DNA of 62,507 bases from Actinomycetota bacterium (GTDB lineage Bacteria; Actinomycetota; CADDZG01; JAHWKV01). Both the position numbers and the translations under genes were made by a program. This document shows, in pieces, positions 45,727 through 61,959 of the stretch. The stretch covers positions 1-62,507 of the forward strand of contig JBBDRQ010000004.1 in the NCBI GenBank assembly GCA_040905365.1, given 5' to 3'. Position 1 is the stretch's first letter; the number at the start of each line of letters is the position of its first letter. The notes under the pieces were generated by a model. The model had not been told where the DNA came from. It saw only the letters and a list, made by a program, of their open reading frames with translations, and ran no database searches.

Positions 45727-46167
45727 ATGAGCTTTGCGGTTGACGCCAACCTGCTCCTCTACGCCTCCGACCTGTCCAGTCCTCGCCAGCCCAAGGCTTA
45801 CGAGCAGTTGCACCGGCTTGCCCGGGGCCCGGAGATTGTCTACCTGTTCTGGCCCGTGCTCATGGCCTATCTGCGTATATCCACCCACTCGTCGATATTT
45901 TCCGCACCCCTGAGCACGGAGGAGGCGATGGATAACGTGAGAGCGCTCGTGGCTCTTCCGCACGTCCGGTGTCCCGGTGAAAACTCGGGCTTTTGGAAGG
46001 TGTATGAACAAATTGGGGCCGGTCAAAATATTCGAGGCAACCTGGTGCCCGACGCACACATCGTGGCGCTGATGATGCAGCACGGAGTTACCGTCATCTG
46101 GACCGACGATCGGGACTTCAGGCGTTTCGAGGGAATTACCGTCCGCTTTTTGGAGGATCTGGACTGA
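45727..46167 (+). CDS. VapC PIN-domain toxin
   Basis: VDANLLLYA, YLRISTH, GNLVPDAHIVAL, TDDRDFRRF. Confidence 0.92.
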   Translation: MSFAVDANLLLYASDLSSPRQPKAYEQLHRLARGPEIVYLFWPVLMAYLRISTHSSIFSAPLSTEEAMDNVRALVALPHVRCPGENSGFWKVYEQIGAGQNIRGNLVPDAHIVALMMQHGVTVIWTDDRDFRRFEGITVRFLEDLD

Positions 46168-46243
46168 GGCTGCGGGCGCGGGCGATGACAGGACACAGTG
46201 GCAATAGGGTTAATAGCGGCCTACCCTGGTGTATTATAGGTGT

Positions 46244-46447
46244 ATGTCACGCACCAACATCGATCTCGACGACCAGGCCTGCCGGGCCGTCATGGAGCGC
46301 TACCACTTTGCGAGCAAGCGGGAGGCGGTCAACTTCGCCCTCCGCACGGTGGCATCGGAGCCGCTCGGCCTCTCCGAGGCCCGCTCACTGCGCGGCTCCG
46401 GCTGGGAAGGGGACCTGGAGATAATGAGGGCCGGCCGCACCGGGTGA
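46244..46447 (+). CDS. VapB antitoxin (resembles mycobacterial VapB11 type)
   Basis: MSRTNIDLDD...KREAVNFALR...GWEGDL; probably leaderless. Confidence 0.88.
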   Translation: MSRTNIDLDDQACRAVMERYHFASKREAVNFALRTVASEPLGLSEARSLRGSGWEGDLEIMRAGRTG

Positions 46448-46833
46448 TTCTTATCGACACCTCGGCCTGGATCGAATTTCTGCGCGACACCGCAAGCCCG
46501 GTGGCCGATAGGGTGGGCGCTGCATTGGACCAGGCCATCGCCGTTTGTGATCCGGTGCGAATGGAGGTCCTGGCAGGCGCCCGGGACGAGAGCCATCTGA
46601 GCGATATGCGCCGGCTGCTCGCCCGGGCATCCACCATTCCGATCGGGCCGGCCGACTACGAGGAGGCCGCCGTTTTGTATCGCATGTGCCGGCGTAAAGG
46701 CGACACGGTGCGCAAGGTCATCGACTGCCTCATCGCAACGGCTGCCATCAAATCCTCGGCCGCAGTACTGCACCTCGATGCCGACTTCGACATCCTGGCG
46801 AGGCATACGCCTCTGCGCACCGTTGAGCTTTGA
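46444..46833 (+). CDS. VapC PIN-domain toxin (VapC11 type)
   Basis: ILIDTSAWIEFLR, MEVLAGAR, DCLIA, LHLDADFD; GTGA overlap with vapB. Confidence 0.92.
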   Translation: MILIDTSAWIEFLRDTASPVADRVGAALDQAIAVCDPVRMEVLAGARDESHLSDMRRLLARASTIPIGPADYEEAAVLYRMCRRKGDTVRKVIDCLIATAAIKSSAAVLHLDADFDILARHTPLRTVEL

Positions 46834-46971
46834 GAGCCGCTGGGCCACGATGATTCCTGGGGTCTAACCGCTGGTGGTGGTGTGACACTGATCTGGCCCG
46901 GAAGGTGAACCTTGAGGCGGCTGGGGGGCTCGGGAAACTCGGTGCCATCGGGTAGATCGCAGATGAACAGC

Positions 46972-47189
46972 GAGGGGATGCGGTAACCCCGGTAGCGGTA
47001 GCGGGTTATCGCGACCTCGGCGGGCCAGGCGAGCCTCGCGCCGTTGACGCCGTCCCATGTGCGTTGCCAGTACCGCCGCTTGATCTGTTTCCAGGTCAGA
47101 CGCGGATACTTCTTGCGCAGCCAGCGTACGACTCGCCACCACAGGTAGTGGCTGAGGTAGGCGAAGCAGCGCTTGCTCGCGCCGTGGCG
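46972..47189 (-). pseudogene. Group II intron RT/maturase C-terminal (domain X) fragment
   Basis: Manual translation RHGASKRCFAYLSHYLWWRVVRWLRKKYPRLTWKQIKRRY...ITRYRYRGYRIP; no RT core present. Confidence 0.75.
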
Positions 47190-47269
47190 TTTTCTCGGGC
47201 GAGAGCGTCAAACGCATCTGCTCGCGCATGAACTCGGCCGTTTGCTCTTTGAGCGCCCGAATCCCCAGC

Positions 47270-47443
47270 GCGGACAATCAGTGGCGGTCGTTCCAGCGCC
47301 AGCGCGAGAAGTCAACTGCAACCTTCTTCGTCGGCCTTTCTCGTGCAAAGCAGCGCACGATCTTCACGTACTGTGTGTCGCGCGGCGACCGTGACTCGGT
47401 TGATGCGCTCTACCGCCTGCTGGCGACGCCCGGTTCCAAATGA
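47270..47443 (+). pseudogene. C-terminal fragment of a UvrD/SF1 helicase
   Basis: FFVGLSRAKQR resembles SF1 motif VI; no upstream helicase body. Confidence 0.5.
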
Positions 47444-47500
47444 AGGATCGCCCGGACCTCCCAGGGCGAGAGCGACCTACGACATCCGACCGGCCACTGC

Positions 47501-48358
47501 CTACTTGCCGCCCATTCGCGCAAGGAACTCCTCGACGGTCGCCACGGCCTGGCGGCGAAGCCGCGCGGTAGCCTCGTCATCGCCGACCTCTGCGAGAAAC
47601 GAGGCGTAGCCGATTGGCCCGTCCTGAGCGACGTCGGCAAACCGCTCCCGTAGGAGAGTCAGCGCCTCGGCAACCTGCTCTCGGCGGGCGATTGGGCTCT
47701 TGACGGCTTCGGTCGCGGCTTCATCAGGCCCGGCACCGAAGTGCAGCAAGCAGAAGATCAGATCGTACGCGTCCTTGTTTTCGTGGCGATCCTGGAAGGC
47801 GAAGATCTTAAGCACAGTGCAGGAGAACAAATTGGCCACCCTCACCTTCACCCGAGACATGCCACCGTCATCGAGTCGTTCAGCTTCGATCTCGCGCTCG
47901 AGATAGTCCTGTGTGACCAGCTGCGCACCTCGAACGTTGAAGGCACCTAGTCCGCTGCCAGCTCCCTCACCCTTGGGCTTGAAGATGTGGCCGGGGTTGA
48001 CCCGATTGGTCTCGCAGAGGAATTCAACCTGGACCTTCACGCCGTCGACATCTCTTTTCCACCGGAAGCTGTTCTCAGCCCTGAATTGCGCCTTCTTGAG
48101 GTTGTTCTCCAGGGTTCGGTAGGTCTCGGGCGCGGCATCACCCAGAACCAGTCCGATGACGACGTCGATGTCGGTCGTCCCCACGTGGGCTCGGGCCCCC
48201 TCAGGCAGCTCACCTACGATGTAGCGCGGCGCCAAACCGCCGGCCAGGTAGATCCTCTCACTCCATGGGCCGATCTCGCCGAGGAGCGTTACCAGCGCAC
48301 GTTCGCACCGAGCCGTGGTCACCTCGTCGTACTCGGAGTAGTGCTCTCGAGGACTCAA
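47501..48358 (-). CDS. Nucleotidyltransferase toxin, AbiEii/MenT-like (type IV TA)
   Basis: LAGGLAP...GTTDIDV (pol-beta G..DxD), K..AF.DR...KDAYDL. Confidence 0.75.
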   Translation of the reverse strand: MSPREHYSEYDEVTTARCERALVTLLGEIGPWSERIYLAGGLAPRYIVGELPEGARAHVGTTDIDVVIGLVLGDAAPETYRTLENNLKKAQFRAENSFRWKRDVDGVKVQVEFLCETNRVNPGHIFKPKGEGAGSGLGAFNVRGAQLVTQDYLEREIEAERLDDGGMSRVKVRVANLFSCTVLKIFAFQDRHENKDAYDLIFCLLHFGAGPDEAATEAVKSPIARREQVAEALTLLRERFADVAQDGPIGYASFLAEVGDDEATARLRRQAVATVEEFLARMGGK

Positions 48359-49410
48359 AATCCGATCACCTCTCGACGCAGGTTGTCGGCCTGCTCGCGG
48401 CCTCGTCGGGGATCGCGGCGCAGGTCTACGTACGTGCGAAAGAGGTTGGCGAGCGACAATCCACCGCGCTTCTCACGGAAGGCGAGCGGACCGTCGTCCC
48501 TGACCTGAAGGAACACGACGTTGTGGCCATCTGTGACCAAGTCTGCTCGCGTCGCTTGCGCCAGCTCGTGCACTCCGACTCTTGCAGTCACCCAGACCTC
48601 GACGACGGGAACCGCCGTCACGAACGGCGCCACCAAGGTTGCGGCCGCGGCCCCGGTGACCGCGTAATTGATGCCGGCGCGCCCGAGGTTATTGGCAACC
48701 TTTTCGGCAAGCAGCCGTGGCGTTTGCGCCAGCACGTACGCGGTTGTTCTGGTCGGCTGCTCCGTGTTCTCTTCCGTCCAAAGGTCGAGCAGCGCGCCGG
48801 GGTCCGTAAGAGTCCGAGTGAGGTTCGGTCCTGTCCCCTGCGCCGCAACCACACCCTCGTGCTCAAGTCGAGCCAGAACGCGATGCGCGAGCCCAGTAGA
48901 CACACCTGCCTCCTCGACAACATCTTTCACTTGCCACCTGCGCTCGGGATGCAGCAGCAGAGCCTGAGTCACCACGCCGGCTTTCCCCTTGAGGCGAGTG
49001 GGTGGGGTAGTGGTATAAGTCCGCCGCTTTCGGCGTTCATGGCCTTCGACGTGAAAGAGAAGCCCCGGCAACTCCAAGTGCGCGTTCCCGAGCCCATCAA
49101 TGATCCCGATGCCATGGTCCTCCAAAATCCGGCGGGTCTCCTCTGTGGTCTCCTCTGCAATGAGTAGGTGGCGCCTCTCAGGGTGCGCCTCGGCGTAATG
49201 AACGAGCTGCCAGGCAGTGGCGGCGTTCGCCCGCCGCTTGAAATCCACAACGACCTCTTCCTGGCGGTCGGCGAAGGTCAGGATGGCGTCGACCCCCCGG
49301 TCGGTGCCGCCAGAGTCGGCGTCCACGGTCAGCCACGGGATCTCCCGTAGGATGCGGAGCGCCTCCGTCTCCAGCGAGCCCCTAATATTCACAAGCTCAC
49401 GCTTATTCAC
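48355..49410 (-). CDS. AbiEi-like antitoxin / wHTH regulator (type IV TA)
   Basis: Central wHTH (AGVSTGLAHRVL..L), LLDLW, YAVTG..AA, C-terminal YVDL..DPRRGREQA; 4-nt overlap with the toxin gene. Confidence 0.75.
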   Translation of the reverse strand: MNKRELVNIRGSLETEALRILREIPWLTVDADSGGTDRGVDAILTFADRQEEVVVDFKRRANAATAWQLVHYAEAHPERRHLLIAEETTEETRRILEDHGIGIIDGLGNAHLELPGLLFHVEGHERRKRRTYTTTPPTRLKGKAGVVTQALLLHPERRWQVKDVVEEAGVSTGLAHRVLARLEHEGVVAAQGTGPNLTRTLTDPGALLDLWTEENTEQPTRTTAYVLAQTPRLLAEKVANNLGRAGINYAVTGAAAATLVAPFVTAVPVVEVWVTARVGVHELAQATRADLVTDGHNVVFLQVRDDGPLAFREKRGGLSLANLFRTYVDLRRDPRRGREQADNLRREVIGF

Positions 49411-49440: not shown

Positions 49441-49660
49441 CCTTATCTAGTTCACTTGGCAAGTCCTGAGTCACCCTCTCAGGAGTCGACAACGCCGCCG
49501 CCGGCGGCGTCCACCGCCCTGCGGGCGACTGACCCGAGACTCACGGGGGGCATGACGGCATGCACGACTGGGCCGACACCCCCGGACCACCACGGCGTTC
49601 TGATCACACACCGGCCGCCGAGAGCGACTGGGTTCTGGACACAGCGGCAAGACGAGACCG

Positions 49661-49840
49661 GCCGTTGGTGTTCTCGTTGCTGCCGCGCTGCCAGGGACTG
49701 TTGGGATCACAGAAGTACACGGCCACCCCGGTGTCGATGGTGGACAGGGCGTGGCGGGCCATCTCCTTGCCCTGGTCCCAGATCAGCGATTGGCTCAGCT
49801 GCTCAGGCAGCCGGAGGATGTGGTCACGTAGCGCGGCAGC
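49661..49840 (-). mobile_element. IS30 family transposase fragment
   Basis: SLIWDQGKEMARH...VYFCDPNSPWQRGSNENTNG. Confidence 0.9.
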
Positions 49841-50187
49841 GGCGGGCTCCGCGGGCCTGTCCCTTTCCCATCCTGCGAGAATCTTTGCCGCCGCGGAATG
49901 CCCACCGTACTTACCGGGTTTATCCAGGAGATTCACCCCACAACGGCTTCGAACCAGTCACCAATACGAAGTCGGTAGGCAGACCGGCCATGGATTGTTG
50001 CGCCGGGTCGGCTCCACCGGCTAGAAGGGGGGGAGGTTCCGCGATGGTCCGTCAACCGCCGCCTGTCTGGTCGAACAATCAGGGCCGGACCGGTCCAGCC
50101 AGCGTCGACGCATCCATTACCCGCCGGGCAGTAGCTCCCGGGCTCCTTGCACATGCTGCGGCGTCCACGGGCAGGGGGCTGCGCCAT

Positions 50188-50571
50188 ATGCGCTATCTGG
50201 TAGAGCTGTCAGTACTTCTGGTAATCGTGCGGGTGCGCCTGAGCCGGCGGGGATTCCAGCCAACCGTGGCTTGGTCCACGACGTTGAACCCAGCGCGCCA
50301 CTGCCATGAGGCTGGGGTGCACAGGACCATTGAGCTGGCGATGACAGATGCTCAGCGGGTGTTCCGCTGGCATCCCGTGGCCAACAAGTGCCTCGAGCAG
50401 TCCCTGGTCCTCTGCAAGTTTCTCGCCCGGCGCGGAATCAGGGCCGAGTTGATTGTCGCAGTGCGGAAGTACCCGTTCGGGTCCCATGCGTGGGCTCGCT
50501 GGGGTGAGGTGCTCTTGACCGACCCTCCCGCCCAGGATCCCGAGCATTTCCACGTGATCGCACGATTCTAG
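50188..50571 (+). CDS. Lasso peptide leader peptidase (B2, transglutaminase-like)
   Basis: KCLEQSL, PFGSHAW, LTD catalytic Cys-His-Asp; ATG 50188 lies within ORF 49456-50571. Confidence 0.9.
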   Translation: MRYLVELSVLLVIVRVRLSRRGFQPTVAWSTTLNPARHCHEAGVHRTIELAMTDAQRVFRWHPVANKCLEQSLVLCKFLARRGIRAELIVAVRKYPFGSHAWARWGEVLLTDPPAQDPEHFHVIARF

Positions 50572-50580
50572 GAGGCACAC

Positions 50581-52602
50581 GTGAGTGGAATCGCCGTCGT
50601 CTACAACCGTGTCGATCCTTCTATCGATCTGGCCTTGCTCGAACGGGTCGTCAAGGACCTTGCCTGGCGAGGTCCTGACCAGGCAGGCACGTGGCACGAT
50701 GACCACGTCGGACTCGGCGCGACGCAACTCTGGACGACCACCGAGGACTGGGGTTCCCGGCAGCCGGTCGTCGGCCACGACGCCAGGAGTGTCCTGGCCT
50801 TCGACGGGCGGTTGGACAACCGGCCGGAACTGCAGGCGGAGCTCGGTCTGGCTGCTGGTGGGAAGGAGACACCCAGCGACGCGGATCTGGCGCTTGCGGC
50901 GTATGGCCGATGGCGCGAGTCATTCCCACAACAACTGATGGGACCATTCTCGGTCGCCGTTTGGGACCGTGCGCAGCACCGGCTGGTCTGCGCCCGCGAT
51001 CCCATCGGCCAAAGACCCTTCTACTACCACATGAGCCGGGGGTGCTTCTACGCGGCCTCGACCATCGAGGCGCTCCGGAGGGTTCCCGGGGTCAGTGCCA
51101 CCTTGAACAACGACTACATCTGGGACTTTCTGTGCACCGGTGGGATGGCCGGCTCGCTCGACCCGGAAGAGACACCGTTCACGGATGTCCGCCGCCTGCC
51201 GCCCGGCCACACGCTGGTGGTCACGCGGAACGGACTGCGACTCGAGCGTTACTGGGAGCCCTGGAGCCTCCCGCCGCTGCGCTACCGTGACGATCGAGAG
51301 TATGCCGAGCACTTCCGCGAACTCTTCACCGAGGTGGTGCGTGCGCACAGCCGGGCCGCCGGACCTGTCTGCGCCACCCTGTCCGGCGGTCTGGACTCCT
51401 CTTCGATCGTATGCGTGATCCGCCAACTGGAGCGGTCAGGCCGGCTCACCGGCGAGCCGCTTCAGACGTTGACGCTGGCTTGGGAGGATGCCGCAGGGTA
51501 CAGAGCGGGCTATGACGAGCGCCAGTACGTCGACGAGGTGGTCGCCCAGTACCCGGGACCAGCGCACTACCTCCGCGAGCAGCGCCTCGACACCTTCGAC
51601 GCCTCTGCCGACACGACCCCTCCCCGCGACGAGCCGTTCAGTCTGGTGGGCCCCCTTTGGTCCGCACTCGCCGACAAGACCCACGCGCTGGGCAGCCGGG
51701 TGCTGGTTGCCGGCAGCGGCGGCGACCACCTGCTGACCGGCAACCGCTTCGCCATCACCGACCTGTTGAGGCGGGGCGCGCTCGGGGAGCTGGCCGAGCA
51801 ACTGCGCGATCTGGCCCACCGGCAGGGCCTGCCGTACCCGGCGCTGGTCGCCGGCTACCTGATCTCTCCCCACCTCCCCCGCCATCTCGGCGCCGCGCTG
51901 CTGGCAGCGCTGACCAAAGACACCGACCGCAGGCGCATCGACTCCTTGTACTACTGGCGGGTCCCCGACTGGGTGCAGGACCGCTCCAGCCACAAGCAGC
52001 GTGGCCGTCAGCGCCACAAGCTGCTGCGTCGCCAGTTCTCTTCCCTGGCTGCGCAGAAGGACTACGAGCAGCTCGGCGTCGGCTCGCAGGACCACCGGCT
52101 CGTGTCCCTGCCGAACGTGGCGCTCGCAAGCGGAGTCGACCTGCGCAACCCGTTCTTCGACACTCGACTCGTCAACTACTGTCTCCGCCTCCCCGCCGAC
52201 CTCAAGTACCGCGACGGGATCACAAAGGTCGCGCTGCGACTGGCGCTGCAGGACATCCTGCCCCCGCAGATCGCCAACCGTCGCGGCAAGACTGCATACA
52301 CGTTCGCTGCAACCGATTACGTCAAGCGCAACTGGGCATCCATCCAGGACACCTACCGGCAGTCGGAGGCGCAGCGGCGGGGCTACGTGAACGCGTCCCT
52401 CCTTCTGGACGAGATCGCACAGCTCCAGCAGGGCGGCAGCGGCGCACTCGACCTGCCCTCGCTACTAGCCGCAATCGGTCTCGAGGACTGGCTGCGACGA
52501 GTCGAGCGCTCACCCGTCCGCGAGACGTGCGGTCAGCACTCCACGGTCATCAACACCGATCGTGACCCTACGAGCATGAAAGGAGGTGACAACCGTGCCT
52601 AA
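50581..52602 (+). CDS. Lasso peptide cyclase (C, asparagine synthetase-like)
   Basis: MSGI (Ntn Cys replaced by Ser), RGPD, RLDNR, ARDPIG.RP, LSGGLDSS, GSGGD; GGAGG RBS; flanked by B2, precursors and RRE. Confidence 0.92.
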   Translation: MSGIAVVYNRVDPSIDLALLERVVKDLAWRGPDQAGTWHDDHVGLGATQLWTTTEDWGSRQPVVGHDARSVLAFDGRLDNRPELQAELGLAAGGKETPSDADLALAAYGRWRESFPQQLMGPFSVAVWDRAQHRLVCARDPIGQRPFYYHMSRGCFYAASTIEALRRVPGVSATLNNDYIWDFLCTGGMAGSLDPEETPFTDVRRLPPGHTLVVTRNGLRLERYWEPWSLPPLRYRDDREYAEHFRELFTEVVRAHSRAAGPVCATLSGGLDSSSIVCVIRQLERSGRLTGEPLQTLTLAWEDAAGYRAGYDERQYVDEVVAQYPGPAHYLREQRLDTFDASADTTPPRDEPFSLVGPLWSALADKTHALGSRVLVAGSGGDHLLTGNRFAITDLLRRGALGELAEQLRDLAHRQGLPYPALVAGYLISPHLPRHLGAALLAALTKDTDRRRIDSLYYWRVPDWVQDRSSHKQRGRQRHKLLRRQFSSLAAQKDYEQLGVGSQDHRLVSLPNVALASGVDLRNPFFDTRLVNYCLRLPADLKYRDGITKVALRLALQDILPPQIANRRGKTAYTFAATDYVKRNWASIQDTYRQSEAQRRGYVNASLLLDEIAQLQQGGSGALDLPSLLAAIGLEDWLRRVERSPVRETCGQHSTVINTDRDPTSMKGGDNRA

Positions 52603-52768
52603 CCCATCACTGTCCTCATCCGGCACCGCCCGGAAGCCATACCACGGCGTGACTCTCGTGCGATTCGGCAATGCGGCCCGTATCACGCTCGGCTGCGATT
52701 GCGGCGAGGACATCGATTGCGACTGTAATTTCCGCAACGACGACGACGGATCGGATGGCCTCGGCTAA
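52595..52768 (+). CDS. Lasso peptide precursor A1 (57 aa; core GCDCGEDIDCDCNFRNDDDGSDGLG)
   Basis: AGGAGG RBS, GTG 52595; leader Y-17, L-12, G-8, T-2; core Gly1, Asp9. Confidence 0.88.
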   Translation: MPNPSLSSSGTARKPYHGVTLVRFGNAARITLGCDCGEDIDCDCNFRNDDDGSDGLG

Positions 52769-52802
52769 CCGCTTGTCAGGCTAGCAGTTTCTTCCGATCG
52801 AG

Positions 52803-52858
52803 TAGCCCACGGCAGGGTCACGGGAGCGCTTGTGAATACATTCATCAGTGCTCCCGTG
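52803..52858 (+). promoter_or_regulatory. Conserved box plus hairpin after precursor A1
   Basis: tagcccacggcagggt, then stem cacgggagcgct / agtgctcccgtg. Confidence 0.7.
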
Positions 52859-52901
52859 CACCCAGCCATTGACCCTATATACACGAAAGGCGGTGAAACG
52901 G

Positions 52902-53078
52902 ATGAATGATTCCACAGATGCCTTGGTCGACGCTGCCAAGCGTCCGTATCACGGCACGACGCTGGCGAGGTTCGGCGACGCTGTACAGGTCACGCTGGGT
53001 TGCACTACCGGCGACACCCTGGACGCTGACCCCCAGGGGGTCCAGTGGCACGACGACAACGGGGACGGCTTGTACTGA
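52902..53078 (+). CDS. Lasso peptide precursor A2 (58 aa; core GCTTGDTLDADPQGVQWHDDNGDGLY)
   Basis: GAAAGG RBS; leader PYHGTTLARFGDAVQVTL paralogous to A1; core Gly1, Asp9. Confidence 0.88.
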   Translation: MNDSTDALVDAAKRPYHGTTLARFGDAVQVTLGCTTGDTLDADPQGVQWHDDNGDGLY

Positions 53079-53112: not shown

Positions 53113-53167
53113 TAGCCCACGGCAGGGTAGCGGGAGCCCTTTTTAGTGTATTGCATAGCGCTCCCGC
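53113..53167 (+). promoter_or_regulatory. Conserved box plus hairpin after precursor A2
   Basis: Same 16-mer tagcccacggcagggt, then stem gcgggagc / gctcccgc. Confidence 0.7.
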
Positions 53168-53198: not shown

Positions 53199-53468
53199 AT
53201 GTCATCAACGATGTACAACACAAGCGAACAGGTATTCATAACCGAATTCGACGGTGAAGCAGTGCTCTTCCACCTCGTCTCTGGTGCGTACTACGGCTTG
53301 GACGAGGTGGGCACCGACGTGTGGCGCATGCTGGATGAGCGCAAGCCGGTCGAGGAGATCGTGCGCGCTCTGCTCGGGCGCTACGACGTCAACGAGTCCC
53401 GGTTGCGTTCGGATGTGCACCGGCTGCTTGCTGACCTCCACCAGGAAAACCTGGTCGAGACGACCTGA
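53199..53468 (+). CDS. RiPP recognition element (PqqD family, lasso B1)
   Basis: 89 aa; DGEAVLF...G.YYGLDEVG..VW.ML...YDV...L..DV..LL..L...LV. Confidence 0.92.
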   Translation: MSSTMYNTSEQVFITEFDGEAVLFHLVSGAYYGLDEVGTDVWRMLDERKPVEEIVRALLGRYDVNESRLRSDVHRLLADLHQENLVETT

Positions 53469-53476
53469 GCGATCAG

Positions 53477-54475
53477 ATGCCCAGCTCGCAAGCGACGCTC
53501 CGGCGCACCGTCGCGCAGCTCGAGGGTCGCCGGTTGACCTACGCCGTGGCGACGGTCGTGGCAATAGGTGAAGCGGCCGCGATGCTGACCTTCCCCTTGG
53601 TGCAACAGTCGTTCTACGATCGGGTCCTCATCGGCGGCGAGACCGAGATCCTGGCGCCTGTATTGCTGGCGATGCTCGCCCTCGTGGTGACGATGCTTGC
53701 AGCGAAGGCGGTCTCTGGGTACCTGTACGCGTCGGTCGGCGAGGCTGTCAAGGTCGACGTCCGGTCACAGCTGACGCAGGCAGAGCTCTCACGGTCGTTG
53801 ACCGCCGGGGACCGGGAGGCGACCGGGGAGCTGGTGTCGGTGGCCACCAACGACGTCGCCAAGATGGGCGAGCTGTATCGCCGAGTCTTTGGACCCGGAG
53901 TAGTCCAGGTGCTGAGGCTCGTCGGCACACTCGCAGTGCTCGCCGTCATCGACCCGCGGCTGCTGGTCGTCGCGCTCCCTCTGCTGGCGCTCTATGCGGC
54001 CGTGCCGATCGGGGTGACGCCAGGACTGCGACGGACAGGGGAGATGGTCCAGCAACGAACGGGCCAGCTCATCACGACCCTGCAGGAGGGGTTCTCGGGC
54101 ACTCGGGACATCAAAGCGTTCGGGCGGGTGGGCTGGGGGGTGGCACGCCAACGTACGTCCGGCGACGCGCTGCGGGAGGCGCAGCTTCGCCTGACCCGCT
54201 TGGAGCTGCTTTCTTCGGGGAGCTTCATCGCCTACTGGCTGAGCGTGGTAGGCATCAGCTGGTACGGAGCCCTGGCGGTCTCGGAGAACCGGCTGACCGT
54301 AGGGGGACTCCTCGCGCTCCTGTTGTACTTCGGTCAACTGCAACAACCGGTGAGTTTCCTCGTGAAGCTGAACAACCGCTTGCAGGTCGGCCTCGCCGCT
54401 TCTGCGCGGGTGTTCGCACACCTCGACCAGCCGCCCGCCGCACACACAGCAGCCGGTGGCCGCCCCCCCCGGTAA
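53477..54475 (+). CDS. ABC exporter transmembrane domain (lasso D, N-terminal half)
   Basis: Six-TM ABC_membrane pattern, TGELVS...ND, EGFSG.RDIKAFG, LTVGGL; ends at TAA in a G/C tract. Confidence 0.85.
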   Translation: MPSSQATLRRTVAQLEGRRLTYAVATVVAIGEAAAMLTFPLVQQSFYDRVLIGGETEILAPVLLAMLALVVTMLAAKAVSGYLYASVGEAVKVDVRSQLTQAELSRSLTAGDREATGELVSVATNDVAKMGELYRRVFGPGVVQVLRLVGTLAVLAVIDPRLLVVALPLLALYAAVPIGVTPGLRRTGEMVQQRTGQLITTLQEGFSGTRDIKAFGRVGWGVARQRTSGDALREAQLRLTRLELLSSGSFIAYWLSVVGISWYGALAVSENRLTVGGLLALLLYFGQLQQPVSFLVKLNNRLQVGLAASARVFAHLDQPPAAHTAAGGRPPR

Positions 54476-54511
54476 CGCGGGGGGCCCCCGCCCCGCCCCC
54501 CGTCAGCAGCC

Positions 54512-55351
54512 GTGGCAGTGCAAGACCTGTCCTTTTGCTACCCTGGCAACAGCGCCTGCCTGCAGAACGTGTGCTTGCGCGCGAGCGCCGGGGAGTTCGT
54601 CGCGATCGTCGGCGAGACAGGCTCGGGCAAGACCACGCTGCTCAACGCTATCCTCGGCTTCGTCGACACCGACCAGGGACATGTGCTGATCGACGGCCAC
54701 GAGCTGGCCGACCTGAGCGACGACGACCTACGCCGGCAGGTCTCGGTGAGCTCGTCAGACGCGGTCCTGTTCGACATGACCATCGCCGATAACATCCGCT
54801 TCGGCAACCTCGACGCCTCCGACGACGAGGTCCGGTCCGCCGCCCATGCCAGCGCCGCCGACGAGTTCATCGAATCCCTACCGGAGGGCTACCAGACCAA
54901 AATCGGCGAACGCGGTGGACGCCTGTCCACCGGCCAACGCCAGCGCATCGCCTTGGCCCGCGCGCTCATCCGCCAGCTCTCGATCCTTCTACTAGACGAA
55001 GCCACCGCCGGCCTGGACGGACCCACGGAGCGGTTGGTCATGGACCGCCTCCTAAGCCGGCCGGACCGCCCGACTATCGTGATGGTCACCCATCGCCTGT
55101 ACACACTCAAGCAGGCCGATCGGATCTACGTCCTGGAGGACGGCCGCATCACCGAGCAGGGAAACCACCACACATTGCTCCAACAGGGTGGCCTGTACCA
55201 TCGGCTCTGCCGGAACCAAGGATTCGCCTCGGACCCGCCCCCAGCTCCTGGCCAATCGCGGCGAGCCCCGTTGAGCCTGCCTGGGCAGGAGCGACAACAG
55301 CGTCTCCACCCCGGAGACGAGGGTATCGGTGGCGTCCCGTCCTCGGTATAA
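54512..55351 (+). CDS. ABC exporter ATPase domain (lasso D, C-terminal half)
   Basis: GETGSGKTT, LSTGQRQR, LLDEATAGLD, VTHRL; same frame as the TMD. Confidence 0.88.
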   Translation: MAVQDLSFCYPGNSACLQNVCLRASAGEFVAIVGETGSGKTTLLNAILGFVDTDQGHVLIDGHELADLSDDDLRRQVSVSSSDAVLFDMTIADNIRFGNLDASDDEVRSAAHASAADEFIESLPEGYQTKIGERGGRLSTGQRQRIALARALIRQLSILLLDEATAGLDGPTERLVMDRLLSRPDRPTIVMVTHRLYTLKQADRIYVLEDGRITEQGNHHTLLQQGGLYHRLCRNQGFASDPPPAPGQSRRAPLSLPGQERQQRLHPGDEGIGGVPSSV

Positions 55352-56233: not shown

Positions 56234-56716
56234 TTAATCCTCGGCCTTGGGCCTAACGGGAGAGGGTCTTTCCGGCGGAAAGAAATCGGAGCCGGACTGG
56301 CCTTCACCGGCGTCCCTCTCGTAGCAGTTACGACCGGCATCATGTTCGATCTCCGAGAAACCCCGATACCCCTCGGCGTCGTCGATGGAGGCGTTGAAAA
56401 CTGCGCAGACCTCGTACTGGGAGTCGGACAGTTTCGTGTATTCGAAAAATTCTCCGGTCTCCGGGTCCCGGCGGGGGTCGAAGGAGCGACTGTACCGATT
56501 GATCGAATCCAGCTCCTCGAGTGAATCGGGCAGGCTGCCCTCGTTGATCCGGTGCTGCGACAACTCGAAGTGCAACTCTGTGAGGTCCTGACGCCTTTGG
56601 TCGTCGGCTCGAAGCTCCCGAGCGGTGTTAGGGGAGCCGACTGCGAACAAACCCGCAATAACTGCGGCAGCAACCAGGACCGTTGCCACAATGCCTACCA
56701 GCTTCGAGTTTTTCAT
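56234..56716 (-). CDS. Membrane-anchored exported protein associated with DUF5671
   Basis: TM, then GSP..AR..R.D..R..DL, LP.SL, DPETG..FEY, YEVCA.F. Confidence 0.7.
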   Translation of the reverse strand: MKNSKLVGIVATVLVAAAVIAGLFAVGSPNTARELRADDQRRQDLTELHFELSQHRINEGSLPDSLEELDSINRYSRSFDPRRDPETGEFFEYTKLSDSQYEVCAVFNASIDDAEGYRGFSEIEHDAGRNCYERDAGEGQSGSDFFPPERPSPVRPKAED

Positions 56717-57309
56717 GTCTGAGGCTCCGGTTGTTTGGATGCAGCAACGCTCGCCTCTTCATCTGCGGGGAAGGAGTCGCTGCGGTAATAAAGAAATACC
56801 AGCGCCGCCATCAGCATCACTCCGGCCGCCCGGACGGCAAAACGGGAGGTCAGATCGCCGCTGAGGTAGCTGTTGATAACGATCATTAGGTCTACCAGCA
56901 CTGTCACCATTACGACGAACAAGTTGAGATAAGCAAACACCTGGCGAAGGCCCGCGGTTTCTGGAGACCGCCTTTTCCTGGTGTAGATGCTCATGTAGAC
57001 GAAGACCGGAAAGGCCACCACCGCCATGGAGATCCCCGCCCGCATAGGACCCTCCCGCACCCCCTGAGCACCCGCGTCCGGAAACTCCGGGAACCAGTAA
57101 TCGGCCAAACCCCATATGAGCACCAGTACGCCCACTACCGTCAAGTAGAGGGTGGCCGTGATGAGCAGGTGGGTCAGCACGTCCCGAGCCACCACCGTCC
57201 CAGACCCCGAGCCCTTCTTCTTCTTGTTCACCAGCAGGACCACACCGGCGACTATGCCGGCGATGATAAGCACCTGTATCAGCAGTGCGATAAGACCGAG
57301 CGCCGCCAC
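56713..57309 (-). CDS. DUF5671-like membrane protein
   Basis: ADYWFP, RAGISMAVVAFPVF, YLNLFV, GDLTSRF; paralog of the next gene. Confidence 0.7.
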   Translation of the reverse strand: MAALGLIALLIQVLIIAGIVAGVVLLVNKKKKGSGSGTVVARDVLTHLLITATLYLTVVGVLVLIWGLADYWFPEFPDAGAQGVREGPMRAGISMAVVAFPVFVYMSIYTRKRRSPETAGLRQVFAYLNLFVVMVTVLVDLMIVINSYLSGDLTSRFAVRAAGVMLMAALVFLYYRSDSFPADEEASVAASKQPEPQT

Positions 57310-57311
57310 AG

Positions 57312-57899
57312 CTACTTACCCTCAACCGGGCCGGACCTGGTCGAGCTGTCCGGCGAGGTCCGGTCATCCGTTTTCTCGGACTTTTCCCGATCACCCTCCG
57401 GCGGCTGCTTTTCGTCGTTTTGATCCTTGCCGGCAGCCTCCTGTTTCGGCTCGCGCAGCTCGCCCAGGTAGTAAAGGAAGACAAAGCCGGCAATCAGCAG
57501 TATCCCCACCGCCTTGGTCGCAAACCTGGCGGTAAGCTCGCCGCCCAGAAACTGGTAGATTATCGAGATCAAATCGATAATGGCAGTTAACGCGATGACG
57601 AACAGCGTCACGTAAGTAAGGATCCGCTTGACCCCCGAGCGCTCCGGCAGCTCGCCGGAGGCAATCTTGCGGCGCACATTGACGGTCAACAGCAGAAAGG
57701 CGGGGTAGGCGACCACTACCATTGCTATACCGGTCCTAATGGCCTCGCTCGGGTAGTTGTAGCTGAACCGCTCGAGCGGATCCTGGAACCAATGGTCGGC
57801 CAGGCCCCAGGTCAAGATAGCCATCCCGATAGCGCTGAGGTAAAGCGTGAGGAAGCTGGCTACGTAAACGAACACGCTTCTTGGGCCGCTGTAAGACAC
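57312..57899 (-). CDS. DUF5671-like membrane protein
   Basis: ADHWF, IRTGIAMVVVAYP, YVTLFV, FLGGELTARF. Confidence 0.72.
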   Translation of the reverse strand: MSYSGPRSVFVYVASFLTLYLSAIGMAILTWGLADHWFQDPLERFSYNYPSEAIRTGIAMVVVAYPAFLLLTVNVRRKIASGELPERSGVKRILTYVTLFVIALTAIIDLISIIYQFLGGELTARFATKAVGILLIAGFVFLYYLGELREPKQEAAGKDQNDEKQPPEGDREKSEKTDDRTSPDSSTRSGPVEGK

Positions 57900-58004
57900 T
57901 GCCGCTCCTTTCGGGACCCAGTTATTTTACCTCAGTTAACTACCACAAAGGGCGCGATTTCTCGCGCCCTTTGTGGAGTTTGGCGTAATTTACCGCTGAG
58001 TCGA

Positions 58005-58853
58005 CTACCTCTCGACGGGCACGCCCACCAGCGATCCGTACTCCGTCCAGGAACCGTCGTAGTTCTTGACGTTATCGAAGCCGAGCAGCTCGTGCAGGAC
58101 GAACCAGCTGTGCGACGAGCGCTCGCCGATGCGGCAGTAAGCGATCACTTCCGGCAGGTCCTTGGTTATACCTTCGTCGCCGTACAGCTCGATGAGCTCG
58201 TCCGCGGACTTGAAGGTACCGTCCTCGGCCGCGGCCTTGGCCCAGGTGATGTTGGCCGATCCGGGTATATGGCCCGGAACCTGTGCCTGCTCCTGCGGCA
58301 GGTGCGGCGGCGCCAGCAGTTCGCCCCGAAACTCCTCGGGGGACCGCACGTCCACGAACGCACCCTTGTTCTCCACGGCCTTCATCACGTCGTCGCGCAG
58401 CGCCCGCAGGTGCGGACGGTCTCCGGCCAGCGTGACGGGGTTGCTGGCTGGAGTAGGCGTCACCGGCTCGGCGCTGAGCGGCCGGTTGTCCAGTTCCCAC
58501 TTTTTGCGGCCGCCGTTGAGCAGCTTCACGCTGTCGAAACCCCGGTACTTGAGCAGCCAGTACGCGTACGCGGCAAACCAGTTGTTGTTGCCGGCGTACA
58601 AGACGACGGTGTCGCCTTCATTTACTCCCGAGCGCGTCAGAAGAGCCTGTAGCTGCTTGCCGTCAACGAACTCGCGGCGCAGGGGATCGTGCAGATCGCT
58701 GGACCAATCCCACGCTATGGCTCCCGGGATGTGACCCTTCTCGTACAAGCTGGTGTCCTCGTCGACTTCGACGATTACCAACGACTCGTCGTCCAGTCTG
58801 TCGGCCAGCTGGTCCGTTTCGATTAGCGTGTCCTTGTTTACGTATTCCGCCAC
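58005..58853 (-). CDS. Thiosulfate sulfurtransferase (tandem rhodanese, CysA/SseA-like)
   Basis: EVDED..LY..GHIPGA, NNWFAAYAYW, YCRIGERSSHSWF, NYDGSWTEYG. Confidence 0.95.
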   Translation of the reverse strand: MAEYVNKDTLIETDQLADRLDDESLVIVEVDEDTSLYEKGHIPGAIAWDWSSDLHDPLRREFVDGKQLQALLTRSGVNEGDTVVLYAGNNNWFAAYAYWLLKYRGFDSVKLLNGGRKKWELDNRPLSAEPVTPTPASNPVTLAGDRPHLRALRDDVMKAVENKGAFVDVRSPEEFRGELLAPPHLPQEQAQVPGHIPGSANITWAKAAAEDGTFKSADELIELYGDEGITKDLPEVIAYCRIGERSSHSWFVLHELLGFDNVKNYDGSWTEYGSLVGVPVER

Positions 58854-59690
58854 CTACAACCCTCCTTTGTCACTGCCTTTTGTTTGGCTGACTTGCGCGT
58901 CTTTATCACCCTTTTTGCGAATGATCTCCCTGCACACCCGGTCGCCCCGGGCTACCGAGGCTTCCGTCTCCACCTCACTCGGGTGGCCCAGCGCCGCCAT
59001 CGCTCCTTCCTTGAGCGCCGGATCTATCAACGCCACCAGATCCGAGTGCTCCAACGCGATATCCCGGAAGGGGCAGTCCGGCGTCTCGATCTCCGCGTAG
59101 TCGTGTTCGAGCCGTACCACCTCGGTCATAGGCGAGAAGCGGCGCAGCTCCTCCACCAGCGCCCCGACGGCCGCCGCGAAGTCCAGTCCGCCGCCCCGGT
59201 ACTCGAGCATCAACTTGCGGCCCTCGTCCATCGCCACCTGCTCGGCCAGGGCGTAGACCTGTTCGCTGTCGATCTTGTCGGCCAGCCTGACAAAAATCTG
59301 CGCAATGAGGCGGTAGGGGTTGGGTGTGCCCACCGAAGCCGGCTCAACCGACTGGATGAGCTCCGGCACCAACGACCGACCCTCACCGGCCTCATCCTCG
59401 GCAGGAGGCGAAACCTCCCAATCTTCGAGGGCGCCCATCTCGCCCTCCCAAGTGAAGTAAACCTTGGAAGGTCTGCCTTTACCCTTGCGCCGAATTCCGG
59501 TAGCCAAGAACCCCGCTTCCACCAGCAGGTCCAGGTGGGCACGCGCGACGTTGGCGTGCAGTGAGAACTCGTCAGCAACCTCCTTGGCCGTCAGGGATCC
59601 TGCCTTAAGCAAGTGCCCGAGGATAGCCGAACGGGTTGGTAGCGCTAGCGCCTTTGCTGCCTTTACGGACTGATCGTCGCCTACGGGCAC
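58854..59690 (-). CDS. ArsR-like HTH regulator with SufR/V4R-like sensory domain
   Basis: TR..IL..L...LTAKEVA...LH.N.AR.HL..L, GRPSK, CPF, GDRVC. Confidence 0.8.
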   Translation of the reverse strand: MPVGDDQSVKAAKALALPTRSAILGHLLKAGSLTAKEVADEFSLHANVARAHLDLLVEAGFLATGIRRKGKGRPSKVYFTWEGEMGALEDWEVSPPAEDEAGEGRSLVPELIQSVEPASVGTPNPYRLIAQIFVRLADKIDSEQVYALAEQVAMDEGRKLMLEYRGGGLDFAAAVGALVEELRRFSPMTEVVRLEHDYAEIETPDCPFRDIALEHSDLVALIDPALKEGAMAALGHPSEVETEASVARGDRVCREIIRKKGDKDAQVSQTKGSDKGGL

Positions 59691-59864: not shown

Positions 59865-59981
59865 GTGAATTTTCTAATAATTGTTCTGGTCCCGACCGCT
59901 ATCGCGGCGCTGCTGTACCTGGGTTCCTGGGCTGAGCGCCGGATGGAAACCCAACAAGCTTCGGAGTCCGCCGGCCTTTAA
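59865..59981 (+). CDS. Putative 38-aa single-TM small protein
   Basis: MNFLIIVLVPTAIAALLYLGSWAERRMETQQASESAGL; TAGAAT -10-like box at 59850-59855. Confidence 0.55.
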   Translation: MNFLIIVLVPTAIAALLYLGSWAERRMETQQASESAGL

Positions 59982-60796
59982 GTAAGACCCAGCACTGTTG
60001 CAGCGATACCCCCGGCCGCTATGCAGTACACGGCAAAACCGATCAGACCCCGTCGCTGCAGGAATGCGACCATTCCCGCTATCGATAAGTAACTTGAGAT
60101 TCCGGCGGATACAAAGCCGGCCGCCAATGCCCCCGCGCCTACTGAATCGCCGGACAGTTGCGGTACCTGGAAGACCGCGGTACCGATAAGTATGGGAATG
60201 GCCATCAGGAACGAGAATCTAGCTGCCTGGGCGCGGGAAAGCCCGGCCAGCATTGCTGCCGATATGGTCGAGCCGGATCGTGAGATTCCCGGCAGAATCG
60301 CAGCCGCCTGGGCCAGTCCCACACCCAGCGCAGCACGCCACGAAACCTGCTCTGTTAACCCCTTCACCCCGGTGAGAACCTCCTTACGATCAGAAGCATC
60401 TTTACGTCGGGTGAGGGCTTCGGCCCCTATGAGAATTACACCGGTGCCTATCAGCTGGATCGCAACCTGGTACGGGTTGCCGAAAACCTGCTCGAACCAC
60501 TCCTCGAAGACCACGCCGATCACCGCAGCCGGCAGCGTGGCCAGCGCCAGCAGCCACACAAACCGGCGTTGTGGACCGGACCGCACCATCCCGAACGCGG
60601 TCTCGATCAGCTCCCGCCGAAAGTAGACCACCAGCGCAAGCAGGGTGGCAGCGTGCAGAAGTACGAAAAAAGGCAGGCTGGGCTGATCCCAGCCGGCAAA
60701 CTCAGGGACCAGGACCAGGTGACCGGAGGAGGAGATCGGAAGAAACTCAGTCAGTCCTTGAACGATCCCTAGGACAATCGCTTCAAAAATGCTCAA
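59978..60796 (-). CDS. uppP: Undecaprenyl-diphosphatase (BacA)
   Basis: GIVQGLTEFLPISSSGHL, PGISRSGSTI, AARFSFL. Confidence 0.96.
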   Translation of the reverse strand: MSIFEAIVLGIVQGLTEFLPISSSGHLVLVPEFAGWDQPSLPFFVLLHAATLLALVVYFRRELIETAFGMVRSGPQRRFVWLLALATLPAAVIGVVFEEWFEQVFGNPYQVAIQLIGTGVILIGAEALTRRKDASDRKEVLTGVKGLTEQVSWRAALGVGLAQAAAILPGISRSGSTISAAMLAGLSRAQAARFSFLMAIPILIGTAVFQVPQLSGDSVGAGALAAGFVSAGISSYLSIAGMVAFLQRRGLIGFAVYCIAAGGIAATVLGLT

Positions 60797-60906
60797 TTAG
60801 TACCCTATCGGTTAACCGGCCCTCGAGGGGGACTTCACCAAGACGCCCCCCTAGATCCGCAGAGTCCGGACAACAGTGGCAGATACTGCCCGCTGAGGAG
60901 GTGCGC

Positions 60907-61959
60907 TTGGCCGTATCTGTCACCAAGACCTACGAGGGTCACCGGCTGGTTGGTGAGGGGCCAATAACCGATTTGGCCAACTCCTACCTTGCCCATTTGA
61001 CTGCCCGCGGCTTCTCCGCGGCAACGGTCAGAGGATACGCCTTCGACCTGCTGAACTTCAGTCGATTCCTGCATGGTAGGGACATCGACCCGGGTAATGT
61101 AGCTCCCAGCGACCTGTTCGATTGGCTTCAGTGGCAGTCCGAGATGCCTGCCCACCCCAACGACAACAACGTCGTCAGCATTCAAGCCAACCGAGGCGCC
61201 TCGCCGGCCACTATGAACCGGCGCGTGGCGGCGGTCAGGGGCCTGTTCGAGTACAGCGTGATCACCGGATTCAGAGACGACAACCCGGTTCCACCTGGAC
61301 GAAGAGCTACCGGACTGCGGGCTCGCCCCCGCGGCACGCTGGGTCACCTCGACACCGGCAAGACCCGCTCCGGGGGCCGTCTGGTCAAGCAGCATCAGCG
61401 CCTTCCCGAGAGCATCGATCTCGCCGATGTCGCAGACTTCGTCGCGGATCTTGCAACCTATCGCGACCGGGCGATGGCTCTGGCGATGGTGCTGGGCGGT
61501 CTGCGGGCCGCCGAAGTGCGTGCCCTCCGGCTCGCTGACGTGGACATGGGGCTGCGCCGTTTACGGGTGACCGGCAAAGGCGGACGGCAACGGGTGGTCC
61601 CGGTGGACCGGCCCTTCTTCGCTGAGCTGGCCGGCTACCTGCACTCCGAGCGCCCCAGCGGCCTTGCGACACCGGAGTGCTTTGTGGTGCTTCGAGGACC
61701 AACCAGGGGCCAGGCAATGACCGAGGCCGGGATGCGCAAGATCTTTCGGGTTCACCGGCAGCGCTCAGGTGCTACCCGAGTCCGTCCCCACCGCCTGCGC
61801 CACACCTACGGGACCGAGCTGGCCGCCGCCGGCATCGATCTGCTGGTGCTCAAGGACCTGATGGGCCACGCCCATTCCGAGACCACGGCAATGTACGTCC
61901 ATCTGTCCCCTGAGCATCTCGCGGCCGAGTACGCCCGGGCCCATGAGGCCTTGCAATGA
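60907..61959 (+). CDS. Tyrosine recombinase/integrase
   Basis: SAM-like N-terminal domain, GLRAAEV, GKGG, HRLRHT, LMGH, Y; GAGGAGG RBS before TTG 60907. Confidence 0.93.
   Translation: MAVSVTKTYEGHRLVGEGPITDLANSYLAHLTARGFSAATVRGYAFDLLNFSRFLHGRDIDPGNVAPSDLFDWLQWQSEMPAHPNDNNVVSIQANRGASPATMNRRVAAVRGLFEYSVITGFRDDNPVPPGRRATGLRARPRGTLGHLDTGKTRSGGRLVKQHQRLPESIDLADVADFVADLATYRDRAMALAMVLGGLRAAEVRALRLADVDMGLRRLRVTGKGGRQRVVPVDRPFFAELAGYLHSERPSGLATPECFVVLRGPTRGQAMTEAGMRKIFRVHRQRSGATRVRPHRLRHTYGTELAAAGIDLLVLKDLMGHAHSETTAMYVHLSPEHLAAEYARAHEALQ

Follow-up and report, generated by a model that had tools for sequence, protein, structure and literature searches.

As read from its sequence, A1 is a real, rare lasso peptide precursor of an uncultured sediment bacterium, and the cross-links of its mature form probably follow a new pattern, with cysteines where no described lasso class has them. 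The reading as a whole, namely that A1 is a genuine substrate of the lasso pathway and yields a polycyclic lasso outside classes I-V, is given here a probability of roughly one half. The disulfide pattern is the basis on which lasso peptides are classed, and their extreme stability makes them attractive as drug scaffolds. If the reading is true, A1 would represent natural use of a ring-loop staple that has so far been made only by protein engineering; it would add to the known classes and offer a scaffold that is both compact and strongly anionic. The window referred to below is the whole stretch of DNA that was analysed (62,507 nucleotides).

The preliminary description had taken A1 for a lasso precursor, and its surroundings bear this out: judged by Pfam and NCBIfam matches, A1 is part of a complete lasso cluster in which B2, the cyclase, A1, A2, B1 and an ABC exporter are co-directional. 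The features are as follows.

50188-50571, + strand: B2 leader peptidase, transglutaminase-like, 127 amino acids (PF13471, NF033537)
50581-52602, + strand: C, Asn-synthase-like lasso macrolactam cyclase, 673 amino acids (Pfam, NCBIfam)
52595-52690, + strand: A1 leader peptide, 32 amino acids, motif Y16..L21.RFG25.A...T31-L32
52691-52768, + strand: A1 core GCDCGEDIDCDCNFRNDDDGSDGLG and stop codon (translation and scripted placement)
52811-52867, + strand: strong RNA hairpin between A1 and A2 (fold of 52766-52900)
52902-53078, + strand: A2 paralogous precursor, 58 amino acids, core GCTTGDTLDADPQGVQWHDDNGDGLY with Cys2 as its lone Cys
53124-53150, + strand: terminator-like stem and T-run 3' of A2 (consensus scan)
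53199-53468, + strand: B1, PqqD-type leader-recognition protein (RRE), 89 amino acids (ATG at 53199; Pfam PqqD)
53477-54475, + strand: ABC exporter, transmembrane half (ABC_membrane, 103.8 bits)
54512-55351, + strand: ABC exporter, ATPase half (ABC_tran, 110.3 bits)

B2 scored 73.2 bits with NF033537 (lasso_biosyn_B2), whose cut-off is 33, and 65.6 bits with PF13471 over its last 117 residues; its start is the ATG at 50188, the listed 371-amino-acid frame from 49456 being too long. The cyclase matched Pfam Asn_synthase (PF00733) at 154.9 bits as well as GATase_7 and GATase_6. Its best NCBIfam model was NF033535 (lasso cyclase) at 382 bits, which is under the strict cut-off of 525, and lasso cyclase is the annotation of its named homologs in the database, which are about 32-35% identical to it. 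It is the sole Asn-synthase-family match in the 2.2-Mb, 92%-complete assembly (G000), in which no housekeeping AsnB was found with PF00733. B1 matched PqqD (PF05402) at 71.3 bits (cut-off 23.4), with NF033536 (lasso_PqqD_Bac) as the best NCBIfam model at 64.5 bits, under its cut-off of 80. The two precursors A1 and A2 are 42% identical. The region 52766-52900 between them folds at -57.7 kcal/mol (z = -5.58), and none of 200 shuffles was as stable; the terminator consensus scan gave 6 sites versus 3.1 expected. A hairpin or terminator-like layout past the precursor genes is common for RiPPs.

By alignment, the exporter is of the MsbA/McjD type; its membrane and ATPase halves align to positions 3-319 and 334-567, respectively, of the same MsbA-type half-transporter models. 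The halves stand in one frame, parted by an in-frame TAA (54473-54475) and 36 nt, within C/G homopolymer runs. In the source run, independent Logan contigs end at this very point (54466-54479); the TAA may be an assembly error, a true split gene or a nonsense mutation. No recognisable tailoring enzyme or thiol-disulfide oxidoreductase was found among the scanned genes flanking the lasso cluster. Two DSBA-family genes are located on other contigs of the genome, and VKOR and Thioredoxin_4 gave no match in the genome.

The A1 precursor comprises 57 amino acids (52595-52768, + strand; translation of 52586-52768 as ...KPYHGVTLVRFGNAARITLGCDCGEDIDCDCNFRNDDDGSDGLG and stop). Its likely start is the GTG at 52595, which lies 8 nt past the Shine-Dalgarno sequence AAAGGAGG; the stop of the cyclase gene is reached only within A1, so that the two genes overlap by 8 nt. 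The core consists of 25 residues at 52691-52765, followed by the stop codon at 52766-52768 (scripted placement). The content given in the preliminary description, Cys at core positions 2, 4, 10 and 12 with nine Asp/Glu and one Arg, is exact by translation and script count; the Cys codons are at 52694 (TGC), 52700 (TGC), 52718 (TGC) and 52724 (TGT). Relative to the background of the window, which was taken from 62 long open frames that are stop-to-stop and uncurated as genes and is hence crude, at least four Cys per 25 residues has a binomial P of about 2e-4 (background 1.2% Cys) and at least nine acidic residues one of about 8e-4 (background 10.9% Asp+Glu). The monoisotopic masses calculated for the core are 2608.868 (linear), 2590.858 (lactam) and 2586.826 (lactam with two disulfides). 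Near the C-terminus, A1 (52736-52765) and A2 (53046-53075) share the acidic motif DD[DN]G(S)DGL, which is absent from the four metagenomic members of the family described below; we take it to bear a loose likeness to Ca-binding DxDxDG loops.

Relatives of A1 are few. A1 alone, in a word-indexed search of 5.8 billion proteins, retrieved only itself (1/1 candidates). With a profile of A1 and A2, an exhaustive HMMER search of 1.84 billion representatives gave seven matches at E <=0.001, comprising both queries, the precursors P0128, P0129 and P0130, and two long repeat proteins; a profile search of the 5.8-billion set (6 matches among 84 candidates) added P0132. The family members besides A1 and A2 are these four precursors, all of them metagenomic and all singleton clusters. 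The repeat proteins, P0127 (845 amino acids) and P0131 (761 amino acids), were rejected; they reach E <=3e-4 only via 5-6 summed weak repeat matches. The repeat ...KPFSGVTLGDTNANSTDAVSITLAG... in the P0127/P0131 set mimics the leader, which calls for caution with summed scores when short (58-position) profiles are used. Searched with the precursor profile, 113 class and 401 phylum genomes gave a match in G000 alone, weak matches in G026 (E 0.004) and G197 (E 7e-4) lying inside 229- and 307-amino-acid frames and being taken as spurious. No further family member was found by regular expression and HMM in 115 fetched loci, which held only distant lasso precursors. The best score in the ESM Atlas was 0.88, under the lead threshold of 0.9, and a lasso 'subterisin' family cluster scored 0.77; neither carries evidential weight.

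The cyclase belongs to a clade with 16 metagenome proteins at 34-68% identity, beyond which bit scores fall from 394 to 308; the SGGLDS PP-loop is invariant in the 17 members. The longest contig is 8092 bp for both P0128 and the closest cyclase, P0006 (68% identity), and 7954 bp for both P0132 and the cyclase P0009 (46% identity), which suggests that each precursor-cyclase pair lies on one contig. No ortholog of the cyclase was found in 60 related genomes, a negative that partly rests on six unpublished genomes (G021, G022, G027, G030, G042 and G057); Asn-synthase-like matches occurred in 28 of 61 genomes (G000 included), all at 24-39% identity. A pattern scan of GTDB species representatives gave no close relative (8 loci, 25-34% identity). 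The metagenome scan with the 17-member cyclase alignment, which rested on generic motifs (DGRLDNR.., SGGLDSS), gave at least 80 loci at 26-41% identity, and the close clade was not among the matches listed. Apart from the likely source run, the cluster was found in one more sequencing run, from that same study, and no RNA run was listed. The short contigs of this other run are identical in sequence, and there is therefore no population variation on which to test selection on the Cys codons.

The leaders of A1 and A2 have Y-H-G-x-T-L-x-R-F-G-x-A-x-x-x-T-L-G in common, and in the alignment of all six family members no change is seen at the Y, the L, RFG and T-L-G. From Tyr to Thr the spacing is 15 residues, which is canonical for lasso leaders. 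At the Pro position of the Y-x-x-P-x-L motif the six members have Val (A1), Thr (three times), Ser and Gly, with Tyr and Leu invariant. Among the matches listed, the leader Y-x-x-P-x-L...T-x was read by eye in 21 of 40 short frames of distant C-then-A lasso loci; Gly follows T-x directly in 14 of these 21 leaders and is the commonest junction (see also locus L102). Thr at position -2 is given as invariant in lasso leaders in the consulted part of a review (PMC10885120). The family has both this Thr(-2) and a small first core residue, T31-L32/G33 being invariant in 6/6 members. Because of the Thr(-2) rule, the core would, as the preliminary description had proposed, start at Gly1 and not at Cys1; cleavage by B2 after T-L is, on these grounds, highly probable.

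With Gly1 as the first residue, every family member has Asp at core position 8 or 9. Among positions 7-9, A1 offers Asp7 and Asp9 as acceptor candidates, and P0129 and A2 only Asp9. Asp9 is conserved in 4/4 members of the 'GC' subfamily, while the remaining two members, P0130 and P0132, have only Asp8. This conservation supports the G1-D9 ring claimed earlier, and Asp9 is likely to be the ring acceptor of A1. In the MAFFT alignment, however, D8, the one residue of the GGPGCQADC subfamily that could serve as acceptor, falls opposite the invariant Asp11 of A1, and the acceptor assignment is therefore not secure; an 11-residue ring via Asp11 would be unprecedented, lasso rings having 7-9 residues as far as the consulted text of two reviews goes (PMC12427821, PMC9266682). 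At the column of A1 Phe14 the four 'GC' members each carry an aromatic residue (F, Y, W and W), with R, Y, R and H in the column after it. The proposed F14/R15 plugs gain support from this column pair; Phe14 and Arg15 are likely candidates, with a short loop of four residues (10-13).

The Cys patterns of the six cores are as follows.

A1, core GCDCGEDIDCDCNFR...: Cys 2, 4, 10, 12
P0129, core GCSCGSGVDCDCMYY...: Cys 2, 4, 10, 12
P0128, core GCGCGCDFDADFTWRC...: Cys 2, 4, 6, 16
A2, core GCTTGDTLDADPQGVQWH...: Cys 2
P0130, core GGPGCQADCS...: Cys 5, 9
P0132, core GGPGCQADCH...: Cys 5, 9

P0129 keeps G-C-x-C-G-x-x-x-D-C-D-C, although 4 of its first 12 core positions differ from A1 and the overall identity is 47%. 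The recurrence of 2/4/10/12 in this independent homolog means that the pattern is no chance feature of one sequence. Conservation of the cysteines in homologs, which had been put forward as a check, was only half borne out: 1/5 relatives has the full pattern, and the paralog A2 has a single Cys. Position by position, Cys2 occurs in 4/6 members, Cys4 in 3/6, and Cys10 and Cys12 in 2/6 each, which points to a pattern selected in a sub-lineage and not to a family-wide constant. Cys directly follows the presumed acceptor Asp in A1, P0129 and the P0130/P0132 type. With A2 having one Cys and P0128 lacking Cys10 and Cys12, bridges are not essential to the family fold.

The chances that the A1 product has two disulfides are put at about even. 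The pairings 2-10/4-12, 2-12/4-10 and 2-4/10-12 are all possible, so that ring-to-loop is one option among three, and that connectivity is proposed tentatively. Cys2 and Cys4 would lie in the ring and Cys10 and Cys12 where the loop begins, so that ring and loop are likely to be joined by at least one bridge; two disulfides with at least one such bridge would be the most likely outcome. A Cys2-Cys10 bridge would, by bond counting, close a 15-membered ring across the isopeptide junction.

Three other explanations were weighed. The four thiols could stay reduced and form a tetrathiolate site (for Zn, Cu, Cd or similar), perhaps aided by carboxylates, which would make A1 a metal-binding lasso serving as metallophore or metal buffer. 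The CxC...CxC spacing is metallothionein-like, nine of the 25 core residues are acidic, the C-terminal DD[DN]G.DGL of A1 and A2 loosely recalls Ca-binding loops, an oxidoreductase gene is absent from the cluster, and the source is a sediment metagenome, where thiols could stay reduced. Against this, the number of Cys varies among the six homologs (1, 2 or 4), the positions shift (2/4/10/12, 2/4/6/16, 5/9), and A2, from the A1 operon, has just one Cys. An even number of Cys occurs in 5/6 members (4, 4, 4, 2, 2, 1) and positions move pairwise, 10 and 12 being lost together and 6 and 16 gained together. Even counts and pairwise moves favour disulfide partners over a fixed Cys4 metal site; the joint gain or loss of Cys10 and Cys12 fits ring-loop pairing and equally a local C10-C12 bridge (with C2-C4). 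The cluster contains no metal transporter or sensor, an ArsR-type HTH and a rhodanese being 3 kb off on the opposite strand. A RiPP precedent with an obligate Zn-Cys4 site exists in the cysimiditides, as described in the part of the report consulted (10.1101/2024.10.02.616296), but their motif, CXXCXGXG twice, is absent from A1. The metal site offered as an alternative in the preliminary description is weakened by the variable number and position of Cys, and we consider it unlikely. Still less likely is a class-I-like lasso made by a cut past T-L-G, whose core, CDCGEDIDCDC..., would be ring-closed between Cys1 and Asp8 and carry two disulfides, with Cys1 taking part in one. Counted from a Cys1 start, each of the six members would still have an acceptor Asp, at position 7 or 8, and the invariance of both Leu32 and Gly33 is unusual for a -1 residue; moreover, a distant locus, L031 (...EITKGCDKQLGSTDGF...), has no acid at positions 7-9 counted from Gly and has Asp9 counted from Cys. 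On the other hand, the 15-residue spacing from Tyr to Thr fits the canonical leader, T-x-G is the commonest junction of related loci (14/21 leaders among the matches listed), and Gly, not Cys, follows T-L-G in P0130 and P0132, so that Cys1 is no family trait. A Cys1 start would also put Thr at -3, contrary to the Thr(-2) described as invariant in the consulted part of PMC10885120. The L031 precursor itself (L031:2515-2685, + strand; ...KAYSTPKLTTHGSVEEITKGCDKQLGSTDGFTFMGLNIVCKTS) has, as a Gly1 core, only Asp3 and Asp10 and no Asp/Glu at 7-9; either Thr(-2) would be broken there, with a Cys1-Asp9 ring, or the ring would be 10-membered.

The third explanation concerns the cluster and its flanks. 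Immediately upstream of the cluster, 49604-49936 (- strand) is a truncated remnant of an rve-type transposase (DDE integrase core; E 0.0011, under the Pfam cut-off). Contig depth at 49607-49813 is hundreds to thousands versus about 11 elsewhere, and this stretch is therefore a widespread multi-copy element. Further upstream are PIN-domain frames (45727-46167 and 46240-46833), an AbiEii-like nucleotidyltransferase (47501-48358, - strand) and a 351-amino-acid frame with a weak HTH match (48355-49410, - strand), so that 45727-49410 looks like a toxin-antitoxin-rich island beside the lasso cluster. At 56713-59690 (- strand), 1.4-4.3 kb downstream of the cluster, are two adjacent DUF5671 membrane paralogs, a double-rhodanese sulfurtransferase and an ArsR-type HTH. 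At 59978-61959, the listed frames of UppP/BacA (- strand) and a tyrosine recombinase (+ strand) share about 225 nt; the recombinase probably starts later than listed and may mark a mobile-element boundary. The cluster could be a horizontally acquired remnant that is decaying or silent and has lost its exported product, in keeping with the TAA that splits the exporter, the rve-type remnant upstream, the integrase and toxin-antitoxin genes nearby, and the failure to find the precursor family in 112 further genomes of its class and a sample of 400 from its phylum. Yet B2, C, A1, A2 and B1 are all open and the family-invariant residues are kept; the TAA lies in a homopolymer run where the Logan contigs break (54466-54479), so that an assembly problem or a two-gene exporter is possible; and the GC content of the cluster (0.61-0.69) shows no sharp contrast with the flanks. 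Decay is accordingly regarded as improbable.

Against the preferred reading of A1 as a functional lasso-pathway substrate stand the replaced Pro of the leader motif, the cyclase and B1 scores under the lasso-specific NCBIfam cut-offs, and the in-frame stop in the exporter. Under this reading, maturation would proceed as follows. The leader would be bound by B1 (PqqD/RRE), and B2 would cut after Thr(-2)-Leu(-1) to expose Gly1. The cyclase would then link the Gly1 amine to the side chain of Asp9, forming a 9-residue macrolactam around the tail; in the threaded form Phe14 and Arg15 would serve as plugs, the loop (residues 10-13) would be short, and the tail long and very acidic. After secretion by the ABC exporter, the four thiols would oxidise to two disulfides, either spontaneously or via housekeeping DsbA-like proteins. 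A more specific proposal for A1 and P0129, which we regard as rather doubtful, is a 'laddered' lasso, in which two parallel bridges or one tetrathiolate metal ion clamp ring positions 2/4 to loop positions 10/12 on either side of the isopeptide junction. If that proposal is true, an uncultured sediment bacterium would make a lasso of a sixth structural class or the first metallo-lasso, its net charge being about -8. Metal binding by the thiols would make A1 the first lasso metallophore. The variable Cys patterns (2/4/10/12, 2/4/6/16, 5/9 and 2 alone) on one conserved leader and cyclase would provide a natural experiment on the role of disulfides in lasso folding and stability.

In the open full-text literature searched, neither a natural lasso with Gly1 and two disulfides nor a metal-binding lasso was found described; predicted cores of this kind may already figure in the large lists that genome mining has produced. 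Siamycins, aborycin and humidimycin are class I lassos, with a 9-residue ring closed on Asp9. Class III (BI-32169, 9401-LP1) and class IV (LP2006, pandonodin, felipeptins) start at Gly1. In the consulted parts of the reviews of 2025 and 2026 (PMC12427821, PMC13352647), classes I-IV are defined by disulfide pattern, and in the former class V by a second isopeptide bond; class I has Cys1 plus a ring-loop and a ring-tail bridge, and classes III and IV have one bridge. The earlier claim that four Cys without Cys1 fall outside the usual classes agrees with these definitions, since A1 fits none of I-V as reviewed there.

Like A1, the class I peptides sviceucin and arcumycin have four Cys, which in class I form two disulfides (consulted parts of PMC9266682 and PMC13352647). 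A1 differs from them in its start, its first core residue by Thr(-2) being Gly, and in having no Cys past position 12; a ring-tail bridge below the predicted F14/R15 plug is thus impossible. Genes similar to sviE and sviF of class I were not found in the A1 cluster. Cluster-encoded oxidoreductases are described as dispensable in classes I and IV, and the single disulfide of classes III and IV is thought to form without dedicated enzymes, as stated in the consulted part of PMC9266682. That disulfide is ring-tail or tail-tail, whereas A1 has four Cys (2/4/10/12) and none in the tail. P0128, with Cys 2/4/6/16, could have a class-III-like bridge. The cysimiditides resemble A1 as RiPPs with four Cys in two pairs, and set the precedent of an obligate Zn-tetracysteine site; unlike A1, they are non-lasso and carry CXXCXGXG twice, modified by a methyltransferase (consulted part of 10.1101/2024.10.02.616296). 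The A1 motifs are CxC, and neither a PIMT-type nor any other methyltransferase was found among the scanned frames, which covered part of 45.7-62.5 kb.

The nearest precedent is engineered stlassin, taken here from the consulted part of its report (PMC8480316). Stlassin closes its ring from Leu1 to Asp8, has a loop of four residues and is plugged by W14/F15. Its variants V2C/A11C (compound 18) and V3C/P12C (compound 19) formed ring-loop disulfides spontaneously, the threaded fold of 18 was confirmed by NMR, and the authors placed both outside classes I-IV (PMC8480316; PMC9266682). A1 resembles them in its predicted 4-residue loop, its predicted plug pair at 14/15 and its ring and loop Cys, and A1 Cys2 and Cys12 (acceptor +3) match stlassin positions 2 and 11 (acceptor +3). 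Compounds 18 and 19 are, however, laboratory mutants with one bridge and an 8-residue ring, and are hydrophobic, whereas A1 is natural, has four Cys and probably a 9-residue Gly1-Asp9 ring, and is strongly anionic.
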